DNA from: Escherichia coli
GTDB taxonomy: Bacteria > Pseudomonadota > Gammaproteobacteria > Enterobacterales > Enterobacteriaceae
NCBI RefSeq assembly: GCF_003790525.1
Contig: NZ_CP033635.1
Direction: 5' to 3' (one strand)
DNA length: 64,000 nucleotides
The notes beneath the pieces were generated by a model. It was not told the DNA's origin. It did no database searches and saw only the letters and a list, made by a program, of their open reading frames with translations. Below are positions 1 to 61,481 of the stretch, in pieces. Made by a program: the position numbers and the translations under genes. Each line of letters starts with the position of its first letter. Position 1 is the stretch's first letter.

Positions 1-2403
1 CACGTCTGCCAGGGTGATTTGCTGCTTCATCGGCGTGAGGATCGGCAACTGGCGCAGTGCCTGCGGGCTATCGCGCCAGCTTTGCGGATAACGCAGATTA
101 ATTGGATAACGAGCAATCCCTTCCACCGTTTCGCCAACCATCGCCCCGCCCACCGCAGATGTCACAAACAATTGCACATCCGCCACCGTCATACCGTAAC
201 GCGCGGCTTTTTCACGGTTAATCTCAACGTTGATATAGCGCCCACCTTCCAGCCGCTCGGCAAGAGCAGAAGCTACGCCTGGCACCGTTCGCGCCACTTC
301 TTCAATTTGCTCCGCCATCGTGTCGATATCCGCCAGCACAGTGCCGGAAACTTTAATGCCGATAGGGCTTTTAATGCCAGTCGAGAGCATATCGATACGG
401 TTACGAATTGGCGGCACCCACAGATTCGCCAGCCCCGGCAGACGCACGGTGTTATCCAGTTCCTCAATGATTTTGTCCATCGTCATGCCTGGCCGCCACT
501 GATCTTGTGGCTTAAGCTGGATAGTCGTTTCTACCATCTCCAGTGGAGCTGAATCGGTGGCGGTTTCCGCTTTCCCGGTTTTGCCAAATACCCGCGCCAC
601 TTCCGGTACGCTCATAATCAGCTTGTCGGTTTTTTGCAGCATGCTCGCCGCCTCTGCTGCGGAAATCCCCGGCAGCGTCGATGGCATATACAACAAGTCG
701 CCTTCATTGATCTGCGGTAAAAATTCCCCGCCAACTTTATTGAGCGGCCAGAGTACCGTCAGCACCGAAAGCGCTGCCACCAACAGCGTGGTTTTCGGCC
801 AGTGCAGTACTTTCAGCAACAGCGGATGATAAACACGAATCAAAAAGCGATTGAGCGGGTTACTGCTTTCCGGCGGAATTTTGCCACGGATCCAGTAGCC
901 CATCAGGATCGGGATCACTACGATCGCCAGTAGCGCCGCGCCCGCCATCGCATAGGTTTTGGTGAACGCCAGCGGGCCAAACAGACGACCTTCCTGCCCT
1001 TCCAGGGTGAAGATCGGGATAAACGACAGCGTGATAATCAGCAGACTGATAAACAGCGCCGGCCCCACTTCAACAGATGCATCGGTAATCACCTGCCAGC
1101 GCGTTTTATTATCCAGCGTGGCGTCAGGATGCTGGTGCTGCCACTCTTCCAGCCGTTTATGCGCATTCTCGATCATGACGATAGCGGCATCGACCATCGC
1201 CCCGACGGCAATCGCAATACCGCCCAGCGACATAATATTGGCGTTCAGTCCCTGAAAGTGCATGACAATAAAAGCAATACACAACCCCAGCGGCAACGAA
1301 ATAATCGCCACCAGCGCCGAGCGCACATGCCAGAGAAACAGCGCACAGACTACCGCCACCACAATAAACTCTTCCAGCAACTTGCCACTGAGGTTGTCAA
1401 TGGCGCGGTCAATGAGCTGGCTGCGATCGTATGTTGTAACTATCTCCACGCCTTCCGGCAGACTGCTTTTCAGCGTTTCCAGTTTGTCCTTCACGGCAGC
1501 GATCACTTCACGGGCGTTTTTGCCGGAACGCAGGATCACCACCCCGCCCGCCACTTCGCCTTCGCCGTTCAGTTCGGCAATGCCCCGGCGCATCTCCGGG
1601 CCAACCTGGACCTTCGCAACATCACGCAGATAAACGGGCACGCCATTTTCACTGGCTTTTAAAACGATGTGATTAAAGTCGTCGAGCGTTTGCAGATATC
1701 CGCTGGCGCGCACCATATATTCCGCTTCCGCCAGTTCGATCGACGAACCGCCCGCTTCCTGGTTTGAAGCATCCAGCGCGCTTTTTACTTCGGCGAGACT
1801 GATGCCATACTGCGCCAGGCGCTGAGGATCGATAACCACCTGATACTCTTTCACCACACCGCCCACCGACGCCACTTCCGCAACGTCAGGGATGGTTTTT
1901 AGCTCATATTTGAGAAACCAGTCCTGCAATGAGCGTAAATCGGCCAGATCGTGCTTACCGCTGCGATCTACCAGTGCATATTCATAGATCCAGCCAACGC
2001 CCGTGGCGTCTGGCCCCAGCTCGGCGCTGACTCCCGCAGGCAGCTTCCCCTGTACCTGATTGAGGTACTCCAGCACCCGCGAGCGCGCCCAGTACGGATC
2101 GGTGCCATCTTCAAAAATGACATACACATAAGAGTCGCCAAACTGCGAGAAACCGCGCACTGTCTTCGCGCCAGGTACCGACAACATGGTGGTGGTTAGC
2201 GGATAAGTCACCTGATTTTCAACGATTTGCGGTGCCTGACCGGGATAGCTGGTTTTAATAATCACCTGTACATCAGAGAGATCCGGCAGCGCATCCACTG
2301 GCGTGTTAATGATGGTCCAGGTGCCCCAGATGCTCAGAAACAACGCGCCCATCAGCACCAGAAAACGGTTCGCCACCGAGCGACGAATAATCCATTCAAT
2401 CAT
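1..2403 (-). CDS. cusA: CusA, RND inner-membrane copper/silver efflux pump (partial; C-terminal part lies beyond the window start)
   Basis: Reverse complement at 2380-2403 encodes MIEWIIRR, the CusA N-terminus; minus-strand frame stays open to position 1; sits downstream of cusB. The long plus-strand ORFs here are antisense shadows. Confidence 0.9.
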
Positions 2404-2414
2404 TGGTTATTCCC

Positions 2415-3638
2415 TCAATGCGCATGGGTAGCACTTTCAGAGCGCATCCGCTCCAGTGCGCCAGAAATATTGGCTTCAGAATCAATCAGGAACAGGCCGC
2501 TGGAAACCACCTTTTCACCTTCCGCCAGACCAGAGCGTAACGCGGTGACGCCTTGCGATGCCTGGAAAACGGCAACGCGTTTCGGTACAAAGCGCCCGTC
2601 AGCATCAACGGTAATCACCCGCTGTTCGTTGCCGGTATCAATCAGCGCCTGTGACGGAATGAGCAGCATCGGTTCGCTGGCGGTATTGAGTTGCAACCAG
2701 GCGTTCATGCCCGGTTTTAGCGCCTCGTCGGCGTTGTCGACTTCCAGACGCAGTTGTAGCGTGCGGGTCGCGGCATCCACGCCGGGTAGCAGGGTCCATT
2801 TGCGAATGGTGAGTGTTTTATCCGGTCGCGCCGGAACGGTGAGGGTAAACTGCGAGGCATCTTTCACCAGCCAGGCGATGGACTCCGGGATCGCAGCAGT
2901 GACCCACACCGGGTCCATACCCTGAATTTTCGCGACCACGTTATCTTTGGCGATATTCATTCCCGCGCGCAGATCAAACGCGGTGATCACGCCATCAATG
3001 GGCGCTTTGAGCGTAAAGCGAGTCTGGATTTTTTGCGTGGCGATCAGGCGGCGAATATCCGCCTCCGGCATTCCCGCCAGTCTCAGCCGCTCAAGAATGC
3101 CTTCAGTCTGGGTCGCCGTACCGCCGGTTTCGCGCAGCAGTAAATACTCACTCTGCGCTTCCACCCAGTCGGGAATGGTCAGGTCGAGAAGCGGTGTGCC
3201 CTTTTGTACTTTATCGCCCACGGTAAGCGGATACACCTTGTCGATAAACCCGGCAGCGCGAGCCTGCACAATGGCATACTGATACTCGTTGTAACTGACA
3301 TTCGCCGGGAAACTCTGGGCAAAAGTCAGCGGCCCGCGCGTGACGGTCGCCGTTTTCACCCCCAGATTCTGCGTCTGGGTCGGGTCAATGCGTACACCAG
3401 ACGCAGAACTCTCTTCATCGGCATATTTCGGCACCAGATCCATATCCATAAACGGCGATTTACCTGGTTTATCGAACCGCGTATTGGGATACATCGGGTC
3501 GTACCAGAATAAGATTTTACGTTCTGCGGTCGGCGTTTTTTCTGCGGGCGGTTCAGCCTTTGCAAACCAGGTAAAACCTGCCGCAGAAATAATACCGCCC
3601 GCGATCATGCTGCCGATAATAAGCGCGATTTTTTTCAT
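2415..3638 (-). CDS. cusB: CusB, periplasmic adaptor of the CusCBA efflux system
   Basis: 407-aa ORF beginning MKKIALIIGSMIAGG with a signal/anchor; position between cusF and cusA. Confidence 0.92.
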   Translation of the reverse strand: MKKIALIIGSMIAGGIISAAGFTWFAKAEPPAEKTPTAERKILFWYDPMYPNTRFDKPGKSPFMDMDLVPKYADEESSASGVRIDPTQTQNLGVKTATVTRGPLTFAQSFPANVSYNEYQYAIVQARAAGFIDKVYPLTVGDKVQKGTPLLDLTIPDWVEAQSEYLLLRETGGTATQTEGILERLRLAGMPEADIRRLIATQKIQTRFTLKAPIDGVITAFDLRAGMNIAKDNVVAKIQGMDPVWVTAAIPESIAWLVKDASQFTLTVPARPDKTLTIRKWTLLPGVDAATRTLQLRLEVDNADEALKPGMNAWLQLNTASEPMLLIPSQALIDTGNEQRVITVDADGRFVPKRVAVFQASQGVTALRSGLAEGEKVVSSGLFLIDSEANISGALERMRSESATHAH

Positions 3639-3653
3639 CTCATTAAACCTGGG

Positions 3654-3986
3654 TTACTGGCTGACTTTAATATCCTGTAATAAAGAAAGGTTGCCCTGCT
3701 GGACAAAATTAAACGCCACTTTGTCGCCGGTTTTAATTTCGCTCATTTTCGTCTGCGGGGTGATGGTAAAGCGCATGGTCATCTCCGGCCAGTTCACGGC
3801 AGCAATCGGATCGTGATGGATGGTGATTTTTTTGCTTTCCAGATCAACACCTTTTACCACGCCAGTGGCGCTAATAACCTGTGGCTGTGCTTCGCTCATG
3901 GATTCATGATGATGTTCGTTAGCCTGGGCATTAAAGCCAATAACGGTAAACAGACTAAACATTGCGACTTGCAGTGCTTTTTTCAT
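3654..3986 (-). CDS. cusF: CusF, periplasmic copper/silver chaperone
   Basis: 110-aa ORF with signal peptide and His-rich motif NEHHHE; position between cusC and cusB. Confidence 0.92.
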   Translation of the reverse strand: MKKALQVAMFSLFTVIGFNAQANEHHHESMSEAQPQVISATGVVKGVDLESKKITIHHDPIAAVNWPEMTMRFTITPQTKMSEIKTGDKVAFNFVQQGNLSLLQDIKVSQ

Positions 3987-4009
3987 TTATTCTCTCCTGG
4001 AGTTAAAAA

Positions 4010-5392
4010 TTATTGCTGCCAACCGCCGCCTAAGGCGGTATATAAAGAAATTTCGTTAACCTGACGGGCATAATTCAGGTCAAGTAAAGTTTGTCGGGTT
4101 GCAAATAAAGAACGCTCGGCATCCAGCACTTCCAGATAACTTACTGCGCCGTGCTGATATAATGCCCGCGCCCGTTGCAAAGTAATTTTCAGCGATGCCA
4201 GATAACGCTGCTGGGCGCTGATTTGATCGTTCAGGCTTTGACGTAATGCCAGCGCATCTGCCACTTCTTTAAAGGCATTCTGGATTTTCTGTTCATAATT
4301 CACCACCGACTGCTGCTGGCGAATTTCGGCGATATCCAGATTGGCCTGGTTGCGTCCGGCATTAAAAATGGGGATCTCAATTTTGGGTATAAAATTCCAC
4401 ATCCCGCTGCTGGCGTTAAATAATGACGACAGATCGCTACTGGCGGTCGATATTCCGCTGGTCAGGCTGATAGACGGGAAAAATGCCGCGCGTGCAGCGC
4501 CAATATTGGCATTAGCCGCCATTAACGCGTGTTCAGCTTCCATAATATCAGGGCGCTGCAATAAGATTTGCGACGGCAAGCCCGCCGGTAATTTAACGCT
4601 TTGCAGGCTGTCGCTGTTTACTGTCTGCGCTTGCGGCAGCTTGCCGTAGCTTCCCAATAACAGTTGCAATGCATTATTCGCCTGCGCCAGTTCCCCCTGA
4701 CGTTTAGCGATGTCGCTGCGGGTACTTTCTATCACCCCGCGAGCCTGTTCTAGCGCCAGAACATTGCTGCTACCGGTCAACAGTTGTTTTTCGACAAATG
4801 CATATGACTGCTGATAATTACGCAGCGTTTCTTCGGCTATTTGCAATTGCGCATACGCCAGTTGCTGATTGAAATAGCTTTGCGCGACATTAGAAACCAG
4901 CAGAATATGCACCGCGCGCTGAGCTTCCTCAGTAGCTAAATAATTTTGACGCTCGGCTTCGCTCATGTTCTTTAAGCGCCCGAAAAAATCGAGGTCAAAG
5001 CTGGCGTTAAGGCCGGTCGAAAACTCCCGTGTCGTGGCGGTATTCCCTTTAAGATTACCGCTCCAGCTGCCGCTGCCCTCGCCATTGAGCTGTGGGTAGC
5101 GGTCGGCATCGGTCAGACGATATTGCGCCCGTGCCTCCTGCACTTTCAGCGCCGCCATGCGCAAATCCCGGTTATTCACCAACGCCTCGCTAATCAGCGT
5201 CTTCACCTGATTATCAACAAAAAAGGTGCGCCAGCCCGCGTTCTGGTAGTTATCTGCTGCGTTAACCAGGCCGTTCTGGCTGAGTGAGAACTGCTGCGGC
5301 ACGGGCATTGCCGGACGCTGATAATCCGGTGCCAGTGAACAACCGGTTAGCGCAAGGGCCACACAAAATGGCAGAAGTTTACAAGGAGACAT
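4010..5392 (-). CDS. cusC: CusC, outer-membrane efflux channel lipoprotein
   Basis: About 460-aa ORF, N-terminus MSPCKLLPFCVALALTGCSLAP with a lipobox; first gene of the cusCFBA operon. Confidence 0.92.
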   Translation of the reverse strand: MSPCKLLPFCVALALTGCSLAPDYQRPAMPVPQQFSLSQNGLVNAADNYQNAGWRTFFVDNQVKTLISEALVNNRDLRMAALKVQEARAQYRLTDADRYPQLNGEGSGSWSGNLKGNTATTREFSTGLNASFDLDFFGRLKNMSEAERQNYLATEEAQRAVHILLVSNVAQSYFNQQLAYAQLQIAEETLRNYQQSYAFVEKQLLTGSSNVLALEQARGVIESTRSDIAKRQGELAQANNALQLLLGSYGKLPQAQTVNSDSLQSVKLPAGLPSQILLQRPDIMEAEHALMAANANIGAARAAFFPSISLTSGISTASSDLSSLFNASSGMWNFIPKIEIPIFNAGRNQANLDIAEIRQQQSVVNYEQKIQNAFKEVADALALRQSLNDQISAQQRYLASLKITLQRARALYQHGAVSYLEVLDAERSLFATRQTLLDLNYARQVNEISLYTALGGGWQQ

Positions 5393-7664: not shown

Positions 7665-7813
7665 TCCTTCAGCAAACGGCAACTTTTATAACCAGTGTAA
7701 AAATAACGTGCCGCAATAATCCTACCTATTAATGATAAAAAGCTGTCACAATTCATAAAAAACTTTAATATACGCCACCCTAAACATAACCAGCGTTAAT
7801 GTAAGGTTTTTGT

Positions 7814-14890: not shown

Positions 14891-14967
14891 TGGCGCGCCC
14901 TGCAGGATTCGAACCTGCGGCCCACGACTTAGAAGGTCGTTGCTCTATCCAACTGAGCTAAGGGCGC
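14891..14967 (-). tRNA. argU: tRNA-Arg, anticodon UCU (argU)
   Basis: Reverse complement reads GCGCCCTTAGCTCAGTTGGATAGAGCAACGACCTTCTAAGTCGTGGGCCGCAGGTTCGAATCCTGCAGGGCGCGCCA: cloverleaf with anticodon loop CUUCUAA and 3' CCA. Confidence 0.93.
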
Positions 14968-28184: not shown

Positions 28185-28372
28185 TGCCGCATGCGGCGTG
28201 AACGCCTTATCCGGCCTACCGTTCCAACACCGACTGTAGGCCTGATAAGATGCGCCAGCATCGCATCAGGCATGGTGTGCCGATTGCCGGATGCGGCGTG
28301 AACGCCTTATCCGGCCTACCGTTCCGACACCGCCTGTAGACCTGATAAGACGCGCCAGCATCGCATCAGGCT
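28185..28372. repeat. REP/BIME cluster (two tandem roughly 100-bp units of paired REP palindromes)
   Basis: GCCGGATGCGGCGTGAACGCCTTATCCGGCCTAC and its inverted partner GTAGGCCTGATAAGACGCGCCAGCATCGCATCAGGC appear twice in tandem between convergent purK and ybcF. Confidence 0.85.
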
Positions 28373-28400
28373 AGATGTGCCAATTGCCTGGTGCCCATCA

Positions 28401-38019: not shown

Positions 38020-38523
38020 TTACTGATAGTGTTTTATGTTCAGATAATGCCCGATGACCTTGTCATGCAGCTCCACCGATTTTGAGAACGACAGTGACTT
38101 CCGTCCCAGCCTTGCCAGATGTTGTCTCAGATTCAGGTTATGCCGCTCAATTCGCTGAGTGTAACGCTTGCTGATTACGTGCAGCTTTCCCTTCAGGCGG
38201 GATTCATACAGCGGCCAGCCATCCGTCATCCATACCACGACCTCAAAGGCCGACAGCAGGCTTAGAAGACGCTCCAGTGTGGCCAGAGTGCGTTCACCGA
38301 ATACGTGCGCAACAACCGTCTTCCGGAGCCTGTCATACGCGTAAAACAGCCAGCGCTGGCGCGATTTAGCCCCGACGTATCCCCACTGTTCGTCCATTTC
38401 CGCGCAGACGATGACGTCACTGCCCGGCTGTATGCGCGAGGTTACCGACTGCGGCCTGAGTTTTTTAAATGGCGGAAAATCGTGTTGAGGCCAACGCCCA
38501 TAATGCGGGCGGTTGCCCGGCAT
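38020..38523 (-). CDS. insB: InsB, IS1 transposase catalytic ORF (expressed by -1 frameshift as InsAB')
   Basis: 167-aa [54 protein letters not shown]. Confidence 0.95.
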
Positions 38524-38717
38524 CCAACGCCATTCATGGCCATATCAATGATTTTCTGGTGCGTACCGGGTTGAGAAGCGGTGTAAGTGAACTGCAGTTG
38601 CCATGTTTTACGGCAGTGAGAGCAGAGATAGCGCTGATGTCCGGCGGTGCTTTTGCCGTTACGCACCACCCCGTCAGTAGCTGAACAGGAGGGACAGCTG
38701 ATAGAAACAGAAGCCAC
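38442..38717 (-). CDS. insA: InsA, IS1 repressor/transposase N-terminal protein
   Basis: 91-aa [43 protein letters not shown] (zinc-finger plus HTH). Confidence 0.95.
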
Positions 38718-49171: not shown

Positions 49172-50281
<1,110 letters not shown>

Positions 50282-50309
50282 TAGGCGGTATTCTGTGCAC
50301 GCTGTTCAT

Positions 50310-50396
50310 GCCGGATGCGGCGTGAACGCCTTATCCGGCCTACGGTTAAGTGCAGTTTTGTAGGCCTGATAAGACGCGCCAGCGTCGCATCAGGCA
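50310..50396. repeat. REP/BIME element (inverted REP pair)
   Basis: GCCGGATGCGGCGTGAACGCCTTATCCGGCCTAC plus inverted GTAGGCCTGATAAGACGCGCCAGCGTCGCATCAGGC between convergent selU and ybbP. Confidence 0.85.
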
Positions 50397-50411
50397 ATCT
50401 AACGCCTGTCA

Positions 50412-52826
50412 TCATCCCGCAAACTGCCTGAACAGCGCCTTACCCTTAACCAGTCGCGCACCCAGCCAGCCGCCGCAAAGCGACAGCAGCAGCGCACCGC
50501 TGCACGGCAGCACAATCCACAATCGCCAGTCTGGCTCCCACGGGAAATCAAACACTTTCGCCTGCAACACTGCCAGCGCCGTTTCCGCACCAATTGCGGC
50601 CACCAGGCCAGAAACAAACCCAAGCATGGCGAACTCACACCACAATGTCGTGCGCAGCAGCTTTTTCCCCGCACCGAGTGTGCGCCACACCACCAGCTCC
50701 TGATGACGCTGACGCATTCCCACCTGCACCTGTGCCAGCAACAGCAACATACCGCAGGCGGTGACCAGCACCACCATCACCTCCAGCGCCCGACTTACCT
50801 GCTCCAGCACCTGACCGACCTGTTTTAAAATCGCGCCAATGTCTAACAGGCTAATGGTCGGGAACTGGCGGTTGAGTTGCGTCAACATGCCGTTGCCATT
50901 CTCCCAGCGGAAACTGGTAAGCCAGCTCTGCGGTTGCCCGTCTAATGCCCCTTCAGGGAAAATAAAATAGAAATTAGGCCGCAGACTTTCCCAGTCCACT
51001 TTGCGCAGGCTGGTCACTTTAGCGCGGAACTCCTGGGTATCGCCCATAAAAGTCACGGTATCACCGAGGGCAACGTTTAAGCGTTTCGCCAGCCCCTCTT
51101 CCATCGACACTTCATCGGCTTTTGGCGGCCAGTTACCGGCGACAATCGGATTATGATCGGGCCGCGTATTTTGCCAGGTAAGATTGAGTTCGCGATTGAG
51201 CGCCTCATCTTCATTGCCTTCTGTCGGCTTGCCGTTAATCGCCGTCAGTCTCGCCCGCACCACCGGATAAAACGATTCCGGGACTATCTGATGTTCCGCG
51301 AGGAACGCTTTTAGCGGTGCTACCTGTTCTGTGGCGATGTTAATTAAAAAGTAGTTCGGGCTTTCTGGAGGTAGCTGCTGCTGCCAGCGGTCGAGCAGAT
51401 CGCCACGCAACACCAGCAGCAGTGCCAGCAGCATAAAGGAGAGCGAAAATGCCGAAAGCTGGCTTAACGTTGACCACGGCTGACGTAACAGGCGGCTAAC
51501 CGCCAGGCGCAGAGGCAGCGATTTCAGCGTCATGCGGCGAAGTACATTCAGCAGCATCCAGCCCAGCACACCGCACAGCAAAGCCAGTACTACCGCGCCC
51601 GCCAGCACCGCCCAAAGCAGCATGCTGCCACCCATTAATCCGGCGAGCAGCAGCACAACCACTACACTGACAATCGGCAGATAAAACTTCAGCGGCCAGA
51701 CGTTCGCTACCACATCATTACGTAATACGCGTAAAGGCTGCGTTGCCAGCAACAAGCGGTATGGTCGTAGCCCCACCAGCAGCGAGATAACCGTCATGGT
51801 GCCGAGCGCCCACAGCCACGGCCAGAGGCTGGCTGGCGGTAGTGCGGCAGGCAGAACGGGCTTGAGCAGCACCATCAACACGTTTTCGAACAACAGGCCT
51901 ATCGCCCCACCGGTAACGGCTGAAAGCGTCAGCACCATCAACCACTGACCGACGATTAGCTTACGCAGTTGCGCTCGCCCTGCCCCCAGCGTTTTGAGGA
52001 TCGCCACCAGATCGTAGCGACTGCGACAGTAATGATTCATCGCCACCGCCACCGCTGCCACTGCCAGCAGCAAGGTCAGAAGCGCAGAAAGCAGCAGGAA
52101 CTGTTGCGAGCGTTCCATCGAGCGCCCCAGCGCGCCTTCGTCCTGTTCCAGACCGTACCAGCGTTGTTCGGGTTTAAGCTGGGGTAACAACCATTTCTCA
52201 TAGCCGTCGAGCTGGTTCTCGTTGCCGCCGAATTTATAGCGCCAGGTGACCCGACTTCCCGGCTGCACGGCTCCGGTTTTATCGACATCCGCCAGATTCA
52301 TCATCAGACGCGGAGCCATCTGGAAGGGGTTAAAACCGGAATCCGGTTCCTGAATCACTTCTCCGGCAATCCGCAAGGTGGCATCGCCCACGTCAATGGT
52401 GTCGCCCGTTTTCAGGTTAAGCAGTGCCATCAGGCGTGGGGCCAGCAATACGCTGCCCGCCTGCGGTTTCAGGCCTGGGGGATTGGTTTGCAGATCGCCA
52501 TACATCGGGTAGATATCATCCACCGCTTTGACGTTCGCCAGCTGCGGTGTGTCGCCTGCAAATGTCATGGTGGCGAAAGTCAGCTGCTTGCCGACTTTCA
52601 GGCCGCGCTTTTGCGCTTCCTCCAGCCACGCTTGCGGCACTTCGCGCGAACTGCGCAACGCCCGATCGCCCGCCATAAACTCCCGGCTTTGCTGGCTTAA
52701 GCCCTTCTCCATGCGATCGCTGATATTGCCCAGCGCCAGCACGCAGGCCACCGCCAGGCTTAGCGCCAGCCAGACAATTAATAGCGACGGCGAGCGCCAT
52801 TCGCGCCAGAACCAACGTGCAATCAT
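50412..52826 (-). CDS. ybbP: YbbP, ABC transporter permease (FtsX/MacB-like with large periplasmic domains)
   Basis: 804-aa polytopic ORF MIARWFWREWRSPSLLIVWLALSLAVA. Confidence 0.88.
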   Translation of the reverse strand: MIARWFWREWRSPSLLIVWLALSLAVACVLALGNISDRMEKGLSQQSREFMAGDRALRSSREVPQAWLEEAQKRGLKVGKQLTFATMTFAGDTPQLANVKAVDDIYPMYGDLQTNPPGLKPQAGSVLLAPRLMALLNLKTGDTIDVGDATLRIAGEVIQEPDSGFNPFQMAPRLMMNLADVDKTGAVQPGSRVTWRYKFGGNENQLDGYEKWLLPQLKPEQRWYGLEQDEGALGRSMERSQQFLLLSALLTLLLAVAAVAVAMNHYCRSRYDLVAILKTLGAGRAQLRKLIVGQWLMVLTLSAVTGGAIGLLFENVLMVLLKPVLPAALPPASLWPWLWALGTMTVISLLVGLRPYRLLLATQPLRVLRNDVVANVWPLKFYLPIVSVVVVLLLAGLMGGSMLLWAVLAGAVVLALLCGVLGWMLLNVLRRMTLKSLPLRLAVSRLLRQPWSTLSQLSAFSLSFMLLALLLVLRGDLLDRWQQQLPPESPNYFLINIATEQVAPLKAFLAEHQIVPESFYPVVRARLTAINGKPTEGNEDEALNRELNLTWQNTRPDHNPIVAGNWPPKADEVSMEEGLAKRLNVALGDTVTFMGDTQEFRAKVTSLRKVDWESLRPNFYFIFPEGALDGQPQSWLTSFRWENGNGMLTQLNRQFPTISLLDIGAILKQVGQVLEQVSRALEVMVVLVTACGMLLLLAQVQVGMRQRHQELVVWRTLGAGKKLLRTTLWCEFAMLGFVSGLVAAIGAETALAVLQAKVFDFPWEPDWRLWIVLPCSGALLLSLCGGWLGARLVKGKALFRQFAG

Positions 52827-53509
52827 GTTTCCTCCTGCAACTGCCCGTTCACCAGCCGTAAGCAGCGGTCGCAGCGTGCCGCCAGTTGCAGGTCGTGGGT
52901 CACCATAATCAACGTGGTGCCATGTTCACGGTTGAGGGAAAACAGCAGGTCGGCAATTTTATCGCCCGTCTGGCGGTCAAGATTGCCGGTGGGTTCGTCG
53001 GCAAACAGCACATCAGGCCGACCATTAAAAGCTCGCGCCAGCGCCACTCGTTGCTGTTCGCCGCCGGAAAGCTGTGCCGGAAGATGATCCAGACGTTTAC
53101 CCAGTCCTAACTGTTCGAGCAACGCTTTTGCCCCGTTACGACTTTCTGCGCTACTCTCACCACGCAGCAGCGCCGGAAGCTCGACGTTTTCCAGCGCGTT
53201 AAGGGTAGGAATTAACATAAATGACTGAAAAACAAAGCCTACGTGCTTCGCGCGCAACTTTGCCCGCGCTTCTTCGTCCATATTATGTAGCGGTTGTCCC
53301 ACCAGACTCACTTCGCCACTGCTGCCGTCATCCAGCCCGGCGAGGATCGCCAGCAAGGTTGACTTACCCGATCCCGACTCGCCCACCAGCGCGATGGTCT
53401 CGCCACGTTTGACAACCAGCTCAACTCCGGTGAGGATGGAGAGTTCATGCTCCCCCTGACCGACGGACTTCTTAAGATGATGAACTTCAACAATGTTTTC
53501 CGCTGGCAT
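52823..53509 (-). CDS. ybbA: YbbA, ABC transporter ATP-binding protein
   Basis: 228-aa ORF with Walker A GESGSGKST, signature LSGGEQQR and Walker B; overlaps ybbP by 4 bp. Confidence 0.9.
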   Translation of the reverse strand: MPAENIVEVHHLKKSVGQGEHELSILTGVELVVKRGETIALVGESGSGKSTLLAILAGLDDGSSGEVSLVGQPLHNMDEEARAKLRAKHVGFVFQSFMLIPTLNALENVELPALLRGESSAESRNGAKALLEQLGLGKRLDHLPAQLSGGEQQRVALARAFNGRPDVLFADEPTGNLDRQTGDKIADLLFSLNREHGTTLIMVTHDLQLAARCDRCLRLVNGQLQEET

Positions 53510-55824: not shown

Positions 55825-55990
55825 TTGAAATGCGATGTGCTGGTTTGTAGGCCTGATAAGACGCGCCAGCGTCGCATCAGGCATCCGCGCATAGCCGCCG
55901 GATGCGGCGTGAACGCCTTATCCGGCCTACCAAACCGTGCTAATTCAATACATTGCAGGTGCCATGTAGGTCTGATAAGACGCATCAGGC
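55825..55990. repeat. REP/BIME cluster
   Basis: Several copies of the GTAGGCCTGATAAGACGC...GCATCAGGC and GCCGGATGCGGCGTGAACGCCTTATCCGGCCTAC palindromes between convergent ybbN and fetB. Confidence 0.85.
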
Positions 55991-58503: not shown

Positions 58504-58958
58504 TGGAGTTAATGGTCGTTCATCCACATATTTTCTGGCTCAGTCTCGGCGGGTTGCTGCTGGCAGCCGAGATGCTGGGCGGAAATGGTTATTTGTTGTG
58601 GAGCGGCGTGGCAGCGGTGATTACCGGCCTGGTGGTCTGGCTGGTGCCGCTGGGTTGGGAGTGGCAAGGGGTGATGTTTGCCATCCTGACGCTGCTCGCC
58701 GCCTGGCTGTGGTGGAAATGGTTGTCGCGGCGGGTGCGCGAACAAAAGCACAGCGACAGTCATTTAAACCAGCGCGGGCAGCAGCTGATTGGCCGACGTT
58801 TTGTGCTGGAATCTCCGCTGGTCAACGGGCGCGGTCATATGCGCGTCGGCGACAGTTCATGGCCTGTCAGCGCCAGCGAGGATCTCGGTGCAGGTACGCA
58901 TGTTGAAGTCATTGCGATAGAAGGGATAACGCTGATCATCCGTGCGGTCATCGCCTGA
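58500..58958 (+). CDS. ybbJ: YbbJ, NfeD-like membrane protein partner of QmcA
   Basis: 152-aa [31 protein letters not shown]; overlaps the qmcA stop by 4 bp. Confidence 0.88.
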
Positions 58959-59045
58959 TGCGACGCTGACGCGTCTTATCATGCCTACAAAATATGCCCG
59001 AATCGTAGGCCAGATAAGGCGCTTGCGCCGCATCCGGCATATAGC
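58959..59045. repeat. REP-like palindromic element at the left edge of the ybbJ-cueR insert
   Basis: GATGCGACGCTGACGCGTCTTATCATGCCTAC ... GTAGGCCAGATAAGGCGCTTGCGCCGCATCCGGCAT, a REP inverted pair. Confidence 0.75.
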
Positions 59046-59060: not shown

Positions 59061-59423
59061 TTACTCTTCCCGGCCTTTACCCATACTTTTTTGGTCTTCA
59101 TCCGGATAGTGTTTTTTTAGATATTCCAGGACGTTTTTATTGACCTTGTGTTGGGTATACACCCACCCTTTCCAGTAATCAGGTTGGTCCAGGTAAACTT
59201 CTGGCGGAATGGTGAAATCAGAAAGCGTTAACCATTCGGCTAACAGATCGGGGTTTCGTTTCTGGATCAACTGCAACAGCATGATCAGCGACATGGCAGA
59301 GGCAGGAGCCGTACTATCGCCGCTTAAATACTTCCACACTGTCGACCGGTTCGAACGAAAAAGGATCGGTAGCAATGCCCGGTCCAGATTCATTTCATTA
59401 AAAATCTTCTCAAATTCATTCAT
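59061..59423 (-). CDS. Hypothetical 120-aa cytoplasmic protein, possible small DNA-binding regulator
   Basis: ORF with AGGAAA Shine-Dalgarno 6 nt upstream of the ATG; no signal peptide; segment RSNRSTVWKYLSG resembles the recognition helix of small phage-type HTH proteins; transcribed divergently from the adjacent 338-aa gene. I do not recognise the protein. Confidence 0.5.
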   Translation of the reverse strand: MNEFEKIFNEMNLDRALLPILFRSNRSTVWKYLSGDSTAPASAMSLIMLLQLIQKRNPDLLAEWLTLSDFTIPPEVYLDQPDYWKGWVYTQHKVNKNVLEYLKKHYPDEDQKSMGKGREE

Positions 59424-59788
59424 TTAAATTTCCTGCCTGGCGTAAACCTCTTAAAAATTGAGATTTATCAAAGAAACGCATTTTAGCACACATCAGGAAC
59501 CGCTTCACGTTTAGTCCAGAAACAGAATTTATTTCGCTTATCAAAACAAGTCTTTACTCTTTTTTACATTGAAAGAGCACGAAATAATTTCCTTTTTTAT
59601 TTATATAAGAAACTATTTTTGTTCCTTATTGGTGGTGTTTACGCTTACACAAGACAAAAATGCGCTTTACATCACACAAATGGCGGCGTAGATTTCGATC
59701 AAATTGCAACGCAGTTTATTTCTTAAAACAATATTATTTGTTTCTTATAGAAACATTAATGCGACTTATTTTGAACAAGAGAAAATGA

Positions 59789-60805
59789 ATGAAAACTGTA
59801 AACGTAGCTTTACTGGCACTCATAATTTCAGCAATATCCAGCCCTGTTGTTTTAGCTGGTGATACCATTGAAGCGGCGGCAACAGAGCTTTCAGCCATTA
59901 ACTCTGGCATGTCGCAATCGGAGATTGAGCAGAAGATTACCCGCTTTTTAGAACGCACAGACAACAGCCCCGCTGCGTATACCTATTTGACTGAACATCA
60001 CTACATCCCTTCTGAAACACCTGATACCACTCAGACTCCCACTGTCCAGACAGATCCTGACGCAGGACAAAAAACCGTTGCCGCTACAGGTGATGTACAG
60101 ACAACCGCCCGTTATCAGAGCATGATCAACGCCCGACAGTCTGCGGTAACTGATGCCCAGCAAACGCAAATTACAGAGCAACAGGCGCAGATCGTAGCCA
60201 CACAAAAAACGCTCGCCGCGACTGGAGATACGCAAAATACCGCGCATTATCAGGAGATGATTAATGCCAGACTGGCGGCTCAAAATGAGGCTAATCAGCG
60301 CACTACCACGGAACAAGGGCAGAAAATGAATGCACTGACAACCGATGTGGCAGCACAACAGCAAAAAGAAAGGGCTCAATACGATAAACAAATGCAAAGT
60401 CTGGCGCAGAAGTCTGTCCAGGCACATGAGCAAATTGAAAGTCTGAGACAAGATTCCGCACAAACGCAGCAACAGTTAACCAACACGCAAAAACGGGTCG
60501 CAGATAACAGCCAACAAATTAACACGCTCAATAACCATTTCGATTCTCTGAAAAACGAAGTTGAGGACAATCGTAAAGAAGCCAATGCGGGAACTGCATC
60601 TGCCATTGCTATCGCCTCACAACCACAGGTGAAAACCGGTGACGTGATGATGGTGTCAGCGGGAGCGGGAACGTTCAACGGTGAATCTGCGGTGTCTGTA
60701 GGAACATCTTTTAATGCCGGAACGCATACGGTACTTAAAGCAGGTATTTCTGCGGATACACAATCTGATTTCGGTGCGGGTGTCGGCGTGGGATATTCGT
60801 TCTAA
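59789..60805 (+). CDS. Small trimeric-autotransporter-like protein: signal peptide, Gln-rich coiled-coil stalk with two internal repeats, YadA-like C-terminal membrane anchor
   Basis: 338-aa ORF: N-terminal MKTVNVALLALIISAISSPVVLA-GD signal peptide; repeats QKTVAATGDVQTTARYQSMINAR and QKTLAATGDTQNTAHYQEMINAR; heptad-like stalk; C-terminus ANAGTASAIAIASQPQ...GAGVGVGYSF matches the four-strand YadA anchor pattern ending in an aromatic residue. Confidence 0.75.
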   Translation: MKTVNVALLALIISAISSPVVLAGDTIEAAATELSAINSGMSQSEIEQKITRFLERTDNSPAAYTYLTEHHYIPSETPDTTQTPTVQTDPDAGQKTVAATGDVQTTARYQSMINARQSAVTDAQQTQITEQQAQIVATQKTLAATGDTQNTAHYQEMINARLAAQNEANQRTTTEQGQKMNALTTDVAAQQQKERAQYDKQMQSLAQKSVQAHEQIESLRQDSAQTQQQLTNTQKRVADNSQQINTLNNHFDSLKNEVEDNRKEANAGTASAIAIASQPQVKTGDVMMVSAGAGTFNGESAVSVGTSFNAGTHTVLKAGISADTQSDFGAGVGVGYSF

Positions 60806-60858
60806 TTTTAACAGCAATTTCTTATTCGCAATTTTCCGCACATTATTTAAGGTTAACA

Positions 60859-61281
60859 ATGATGAATAGCTCCATTAAATCGTTTTCCCTGCTGGCGGTT
60901 ATATTACTGGCTGGCTGTAGTTCACCCACTTCCCGCATCGCAGATTGCCAGGCGCAGGGCGTCAGCCATGACACCTGTTATCTCGCAGAACAGCAGCGTC
61001 AGACGGCTATTTTAAGTGCATCCGAGGCGCAGGCATTTAAAAATGCAGAAGCCGCACAACATGCCCAGGCGGCAAAGAAAGCCATTTATAAAGGATTTGG
61101 CATGACCTTTAGAATGAGCAGTAAGAACTTTGCTTATCTCAATGATTCATTATGTGCAATTGATGAAGACAATAAAGATGCCACTGTTTATCAGTCAGGT
61201 CTTTATAACGTCATTGTTTATCACCACACGGGAAAAGTCGCCTTAATGAAGGAAGGTCAGTTTGTGGGTTATTTAAAATGA
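60859..61281 (+). CDS. Hypothetical lipoprotein (140 aa)
   Basis: Signal peptide with lipobox LLAG-C (Cys20), three further Cys; AAGG ribosome-binding site upstream; 53 bp downstream of the autotransporter-like gene. Confidence 0.6.
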   Translation: MMNSSIKSFSLLAVILLAGCSSPTSRIADCQAQGVSHDTCYLAEQQRQTAILSASEAQAFKNAEAAQHAQAAKKAIYKGFGMTFRMSSKNFAYLNDSLCAIDEDNKDATVYQSGLYNVIVYHHTGKVALMKEGQFVGYLK

Positions 61282-61481
61282 AGGAGCAAAGGAAAATCCC
61301 CCTGACGCATATTATGATTATCGGTGCGTTTATTTTTGCCTTCTTGCAAGTGGTGTTATTAGCCTCCCTGGTTCACGCTGTGAATGTTAACAACGAAATC
61401 CAGGAAGGCTTATTTCAGTCGGGGCGCATTATGGTAGAAAGTTTGCAGCATATTCTTTCGGTGCAAACGGGGATTAACTGA
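61278..61481 (+). CDS. Hypothetical small single-pass membrane protein (67 aa)
   Basis: ATG overlaps the lipoprotein stop (ATGA), with AAGGAG inside the upstream gene; one hydrophobic helix IMIIGAFIFAFLQVVLLASLV. Confidence 0.45.
   Translation: MKEQRKIPLTHIMIIGAFIFAFLQVVLLASLVHAVNVNNEIQEGLFQSGRIMVESLQHILSVQTGIN

Follow-up and report, generated by a model that had tools for sequence, protein, structure and literature searches.

The stretch of DNA analysed here (the window; 64,000 nt) matches Escherichia coli SMS-3-5 (NC_010498.1), with 100% identity across the 2.5 kb tested. At the junction under study, RefSeq annotates mnmH and ybbP as convergent neighbours separated by a spacer of 130 bp (50282-50411); both genes score far over the NCBIfam equivalog cut-offs. 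The junction and its flanks comprise the following features.

49187-50281, + strand: mnmH (also selU or ybbB), tRNA 2-selenouridine synthase (ORF list; NCBIfam NF008749, 757 bits; RefSeq NC_010498.1)
50279-50281, + strand: stop codon of mnmH, TAA
50282-50309, unstranded: left spacer, 28 nt of unique sequence (blastn break points and allele sequences)
50310-50343, + strand: y-type REP, GCCGGATGCGGCGTGAACGCCTTATCCGGCCTAC, ending in CTAC (sequence, inverted repeat I3 and RNA-fold stem-loop)
50344-50359, unstranded: S-type tail-to-tail linker of 16 nt, GGTTAAGTGCAGTTTT (spacing as in the three other pairs of the window)
50360-50395, - strand: inverted z2-type REP, starting with GTAG on the + strand (sequence, inverted repeats I2 and I5)
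50396-50411, unstranded: right spacer of 16 nt, AATCTAACGCCTGTCA, reaching the ybbP stop codon
50412-50414, - strand: stop codon of ybbP, TGA
50412-52826, - strand: ybbP, permease of the YbbAP ABC transporter (ORF list; NCBIfam NF041854, 1462 bits; annotation)
52823-53509, - strand: ybbA, ATP-binding subunit, in the same operon as ybbP (NCBIfam NF007879, 478 bits; annotation)

A preliminary description of this DNA had placed selU and ybbP in convergent orientation, about 130 bp apart, with an inverted REP pair between them; its coordinates were exact and the REP pair was confirmed. The right spacer is retained in E. albertii and in most of the short BIME-bearing alleles examined, the 58-bp allele excepted, and in it a further TGA, in the same frame, follows the ybbP stop codon (50409-50411, - strand). 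Twenty-four complete genomes of varied host origin carry the same 2,501 bp at ~100% identity (22 by bit score, two slightly lower). An assembly artefact or collapse at the junction is ruled out, since these 24 independent genomes share the sequence. Beyond Escherichia, the convergence of mnmH and ybbP is maintained across the Enterobacteriaceae, as seen in Citrobacter, Kluyvera, Kosakonia and Buttiauxella, although the inserts between the two genes vary.

A scan of 50000-50700 identified neither an intrinsic terminator nor a promoter-like site in the spacer, and the run of T residues on the transcribed strand that characterizes an intrinsic terminator is absent after either REP. The only three ORFs overlapping the spacer (50203-50415, - strand; 50350-50703, + strand; 50124-50309, - strand) were rejected as hidden small genes, being antisense read-throughs of mnmH or ybbP.

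Anatomy of the REP pair

Both units of the spacer are imperfect palindromes of ~35 nt that carry the GTAG/CTAC end, lie outside genes and are highly repeated, with hundreds of thousands of REP matches across E. coli genomes. Within the window, the y REP of the spacer is identical to the copy at 28285-28319, differs by one base from that at 28185-28219 and, over its last 27 nt, is identical to the copy ending at 55930. The z2 REP shares 94-100% identity (34-36 of 36 nt) with the z2 copies at 28236, 28336 and 55847. For the REP tail motif TTATCMGGCCTAC, 11 copies were counted in the window where 0.06 would be expected, and all four tail-to-tail REP pairs of the window have the 16-nt spacing. According to RNA folding, the spacer reaches -65.6 kcal/mol on the + strand (z = -4.3) and -62.8 kcal/mol on the - strand (z = -3.9) relative to shuffled sequences. 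The REP pair is far beyond chance. The y, z1 and z2 type calls are in part provisional, relying on general consensus sequences.

In the Bachellier/Gilson classification, as summarised in PMC3333891, a BIME-2 consists of a y REP and an inverted z2 REP joined by a short S linker. The spacer contains a single unit of this type, which is ordinary for E. coli, a species in which convergent genes commonly have a REP/BIME pair between them. Three further BIMEs were observed in the window: the ybcF-purK interval contains two y-S-z2 units in tandem (28185-28385), a z2-y-long linker-z1-like array follows ybbO (55847-55990) and a z2/y pair adjoins ybbJ (58953-59040).

Occupied and unoccupied states of the junction

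To relate the junction to that of K-12, we compared the window with an MG1655 derivative (L003). According to blastn, homology ends at 50282 and restarts at 50406, and where the window has 50283-50405 (123 bp) K-12 carries an element of 7,294 bp (L003:17284-24577). The latter contains the ylbG pseudogene, small hypothetical genes, an RHS-core fragment, ybbC and rhsD (1,426 aa). No REP is left at the K-12 junction, and the 50283-50405 segment, which includes both REPs, is without a K-12 counterpart. Judged from these end points, RhsD in K-12 is a replacement of the spacer, not a plain insertion. The pairwise comparison proposed in the preliminary description thus places RhsD between mnmH and ybbP in K-12 and nothing of it in the spacer of the window. 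The presence and gene content of the K-12 element were borne out, and the ~10 kb attributed to it was an overestimate.

Searches for Rhs sequences extended this result. A tblastn search with K-12 RhsD detected no Rhs homology in the 64-kb window (best E = 0.17), and no Rhs element, with its large GC-rich core ORF of YD repeats followed by a variable tip and an immunity gene, was recognised there. The rest of the chromosome was probed with a chimeric query, comprising 2.2 kb of ybbP and, on the opposite strand, 1.3 kb of clade-I rhsD core. This query matched at one place in the SMS-3-5 record as compared to seven in the median genome; because there is only this one place, the core segment is without a match on the SMS-3-5 chromosome (blastn, word 11). 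The 23 near-identical relatives of SMS-3-5 behaved in the same manner. Thus, the chromosome-wide search for an Rhs core, sampled by the 1.3-kb segment, detected none.

These data agree with published work. In Table 1 of Jackson et al. 2009 (PMC2935791), SMS-3-5 is entered with 0 rhs genes, and their Table 3 defines the ybbA-ybbB site as Rhs position 3, occupied in some strains only. They inferred that position 3 is a duplicate of position 6 and postdates the divergence from a group of pathogenic strains without the expansion of clade I rhs genes. The SMS-3-5 count of 0 rhs genes fits that group. The window, the chromosome and Jackson 2009 therefore concur with the earlier view that the locus is Rhs-free here and that Rhs elements are variable accessory cassettes. 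Because that study lists both strain and locus, the absence of Rhs at this site was already published. The nfrB-cusS junction (window 7665-7813) is Rhs position 4 of the same study (PMC2935791); it spans merely 149 bp and, therefore, a second published Rhs site is also empty in this genome.

Two other types of cargo were found at the junction. The first is a 570-bp module (L002:2297-2866) inserted in other strains between the positions corresponding to window 50295 and 50296. It encodes a 27-aa peptide, MKTFLDKVLIVLKALIALLELIRQFIE, that passes the NCBIfam DinQ model NF041472 (40.9 bits; cut-off 30), together with an AgrB-like antisense RNA (RF02891, 53.6 bits; Rfam gathering score 40), and shares ~69% identity with the canonical dinQ locus. 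By these matches, the module is a DinQ/AgrB-like type I toxin-antitoxin paralogue; Kristiansen et al. 2016 (PMC5066626) described the dql family of genes. It also occurs in Escherichia sp. E1V33. A blastn search found no trace of the module, and with it no such type I toxin-antitoxin pair, in the whole window. Decayed forms were observed elsewhere: in one E. coli representative (L013:11095-11330) a remnant of the module is collapsed between two direct repeats, AAAAAAACCGACATGACAGTYGGTTT, and in another sequence (L007:1483-2086) an internal deletion of ~108 bp takes out the toxin start codon.

The second type is an AT-rich island (40% GC) of 4,241 bp (L009:15274-19514) that encodes an Hcp (tssD, 667 aa) extended by a long C-terminal part, together with three DUF2931 proteins. 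This Hcp-extended-toxin (Hcp-ET) island replaces the last 9 nt of mnmH and is also present in E. whittamii (L016, about 1100-4650). A 58-bp allele (L011:1001-1058) contains no REP and looks like a deletion scar of the island, because its right half matches the island's terminal hairpin. Three toxin systems alternate at the junction: RhsD with its immunity gene, the Hcp-extended toxin with DUF2931, and the DinQ/AgrB-like type I toxin-antitoxin module.

The frequency of each state was determined in 5,426 complete E. coli genomes using junction-specific queries. The K-12-type RhsD junction is the state of 2,860 genomes (53%) and the Hcp-toxin island that of 572 (~11%). According to a REP-free synthetic junction query, mnmH and ybbP lie <1.5 kb apart in 1,907 of 5,420 genomes. 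The 570-bp DinQ/AgrB-like module was found in 1,315 of the 5,426 (~24%) and accounts for about that many of the 1,907 short-spacer genomes, and a BIME alone or a scar occupies the junction in ~11% of complete genomes. The exact 130-bp architecture was found in 33 of the 5,426 genomes (0.6%), 24 of them at 100% identity and nine with flanks that are ~4% divergent.

Probable origin and possible function of the 130-bp allele

Short junction alleles of 58, 130, 140, 240, 340, 604, 712 and 914 bp were read. They conform to one plan: a DinQ-like module that may or may not be present, y-S-z2-l repeated n = 0-2 times and a terminal y-L-z1, in which the L linker carries the IHF consensus AATCAATATATTG. 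E. albertii, represented by one genome and used as an outgroup, has a 240-bp array, y-S-z2-l-y-L-z1, with the same outer flanks as the window. In the alignment of these alleles (A1), the 130-bp alleles lack a block of 110 nt (l-y-L-z1) whose two ends lie in CGCATCAGGCA, a sequence common to z2 and z1. By contrast, the 140-bp allele of E. coli Nissle 1917 lacks a different block, of 100 nt, bounded by two y REPs. The window spacer is without the IHF consensus AATCAATATATTG because the 110-nt l-y-L-z1 part is absent. Consistent with this, a pattern search with the IHF consensus WATCAANNNNTTR found no match in the window spacer and did find it in the 240-bp and 712-bp alleles.

Based on the alignment, the most likely account of the 130-bp allele is that recombination between REPs of the ancestral array produced it, leaving one BIME-2 unit in place. 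More specifically, 110 nt would have been lost from a 240-bp array by recombination between z2 and z1 at their shared ...CGCATCAGGCA ends, an event that would also have taken out the IHF-binding L linker. The Nissle 1917 allele would be the reciprocal type, in which y/y recombination retained y-L-z1. Variation in copy number between strains is a general property of BIMEs (Ton-Hoang et al. 2012, PMC3333891). The REP pair is then a remnant of an older array held in common with E. albertii and, therefore, the Rhs-free state is ancestral, a call supported by one E. albertii genome; of the other Escherichia outgroups, E1V33 carries the DinQ-like module and E. whittamii the Hcp-ET island. The earlier statement that a REP/BIME fills the junction holds in that the pair is present; the pair fills no excision gap and is instead a shortened remnant of the older array.

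Overall, we conclude that the spacer is the unoccupied (Rhs-free and island-free) form of the RhsD locus, Rhs position 3, with a single BIME-2 unit that would derive from z2/z1 recombination and whose REPs may have hairpin and gyrase functions. We assign this reading a probability of about 0.88.

The distribution of the allele bears on whether it arose where it is now found. In the nine genomes with divergent flanks (L012:1213-1342), mnmH and ybbP are 95.7-96.8% identical to the window and the spacer is identical at 129 of 130 positions; therefore, the deletion occurred on two occasions or was passed on by recombination. The 130-bp spacer could accordingly have been imported from another lineage by homologous recombination, whatever the recipient had carried, and the mixed combinations of module state and BIME array length indeed suggest recombination at the locus. 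However, the spacer is too short for the near-identity to be significant (~5 mismatches expected versus one seen) and REPs are homogenised genome-wide in any event. We regard such an import as unlikely, and under it the locus would still be Rhs-free and the identity of the element unchanged.

A very improbable history is that the SMS-3-5 lineage once had RhsD at this position and later deleted it, leaving the junction as a scar. Scars do exist at the locus, as in the 58-bp allele with its Hcp-ET hairpin (L011) and the DinQ-like remnant (L013), and the last 383 bp of mnmH in the window are 99% identical to K-12. Nevertheless, secondary loss is disfavoured because Rhs-bearing alleles are without the BIME and the window spacer is without element sequence. 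K-12 lacks the whole BIME, and a deletion could not rebuild y-S-z2 together with the conserved 28-nt and 16-nt flanks, whereas the flanks and REPs of the window spacer match those of Rhs-free alleles and E. albertii. Moreover, no sequence of the K-12 element is left in the spacer, the SMS-3-5 chromosome has no match to the sampled rhsD core, and, according to Jackson 2009 (PMC2935791), position 3 originated once this strain group had already split off.

Finally, that the spacer encodes a dedicated sRNA, a naRNA4/REP325-like nucleoid-associated RNA, instead of a passive 3' structure is scarcely credible, and the gene call was dropped as sub-threshold REP similarity: Rfam naRNA4 (RF02564) matches 50304-50340, 50364-50399 and 50309-50396 with E values of 4.6e-5 to 3.9e-4, but the scores of 34-38 bits are far under the gathering score of 59.5, the matches correspond to the REP consensus, naRNA4 comes from a six-repeat cluster whereas the spacer is one unit, and no promoter-like site was found in 50000-50700.

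The unoccupied allele, with its single BIME-2 unit, may nonetheless serve the two genes that flank it. By analogy with other REPs, the hairpins probably protect the 3' ends of both convergent transcripts: those of mnmH and ybbP would each end in, or run through, a stable REP hairpin that shields the 3' end from exonucleases. DNA gyrase binds and cleaves BIME-2 in vivo, preferentially in y REPs (Sutormin 2018, PMC6379681). By the same type of analogy, the y REP at 50310-50343 may be a gyrase site between the converging units and, as a preferred site, would relieve the positive supercoils that accumulate between convergent genes. K-12, the strain of the published expression, 3'-end and gyrase maps, has lost the BIME at this junction. 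According to PMC12306157, which cites Liang 2015, a REP located <=15 nt from a stop codon causes ribosome stalling and translational down-regulation; the z2 hairpin starts 15-16 nt past the ybbP stop codon, at this published threshold.

A broader reading combines the cargo with the array. The mnmH-ybbP junction could be a landing pad dedicated to toxin cargo, more than a place where Rhs is found by chance; three unrelated systems alternate there, each displacing or joining an ancestral BIME array that itself expands and contracts by REP-REP recombination. The 130-bp allele would then represent the naive state in its minimal form, and the missing IHF linker could affect termination or supercoiling in ybbAP-tesA. 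We offer this reading tentatively, as a possibility that we consider rather doubtful.

Other variable sites and comparison with known systems

Further variable sites were noted in the window. A copy of IS1 (38020-38717) splits ybbY, a gene for a uracil/xanthine transporter; the RefSeq annotation gives its two halves as pseudogenes. In K-12, cueR and ybbJ are direct neighbours, whereas in the window they are separated by a gene for a YadA-family autotransporter adhesin and three hypothetical genes (59061-61481); a REP pair (58976-59017) lies at the edge of this insert, marking another variable junction. A tRNA-Arg gene (14891-14967) is followed directly by envY. At this tRNA-Arg, K-12 carries the DLP12 prophage and ompT, and the DLP12 site appears to be unoccupied in the window.

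Two database records look, from their sequences, like contamination in public assemblies. L048, a 3,995-bp contig filed as an 'uncultured Alistipes sp.' MAG, was rejected as an extra copy of the window allele: it is K-12-like E. coli contamination, in which mnmH is followed by the ylbG side of RhsD. L088, a contig of 394 bp filed under 'Trinickia soli', codes for 131 aa that are 98% identical to E. coli MnmH.

In sum, the observation is confirmed and its interpretation supported with small corrections; the polymorphism is ordinary and already documented. The presence or absence of Rhs at fixed positions having been published for this locus and strain, the finding carries little weight alone. 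The added value is modest, consisting of a clean census and an allele series for one hotspot. The series illustrates in detail how recombination between REPs reshapes a BIME, and could provide a natural set for testing the effects of BIME-1 and BIME-2 on the expression of flanking genes.

As in BIME-2, the spacer comprises y and inverted z2 REPs arranged tail-to-tail across a 16-nt linker, is extragenic and lies at gene 3' ends. It differs in being one unit, not a tandem array, and in adjoining ybbP without the repeated s/l/r flanking motif. The tandem, multi-copy arrangement typical of BIME-2 is thus not seen in the window spacer, and its sister alleles have one or two units followed by y-L-z1. 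The BIME-1/RIB/RIP type is represented at the same junction in E. coli Nissle 1917, which likewise has a single REP pair and the same outer flanks. By contrast, the Nissle allele combines a long L linker with a z1 REP, whereas the window allele has a short S linker, a z2 REP and no IHF site; the long L linker with IHF consensus and the z1 REP that define this type are both missing from the spacer. The atypical (chimeric) BIME y-S-z2-l-y-L-z1 of E. albertii and many E. coli strains has the same flanks and first unit as the window allele, of which it is evidently the parent; the window allele is without the 110-nt l-y-L-z1 part. With respect to the K-12 RhsD locus, the junction in the window differs in having no rhs core, ybbC, orphan tips or ylbG. 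The junction and the flanking genes are the same in both, and the window carries the unoccupied allele of a published variable locus.
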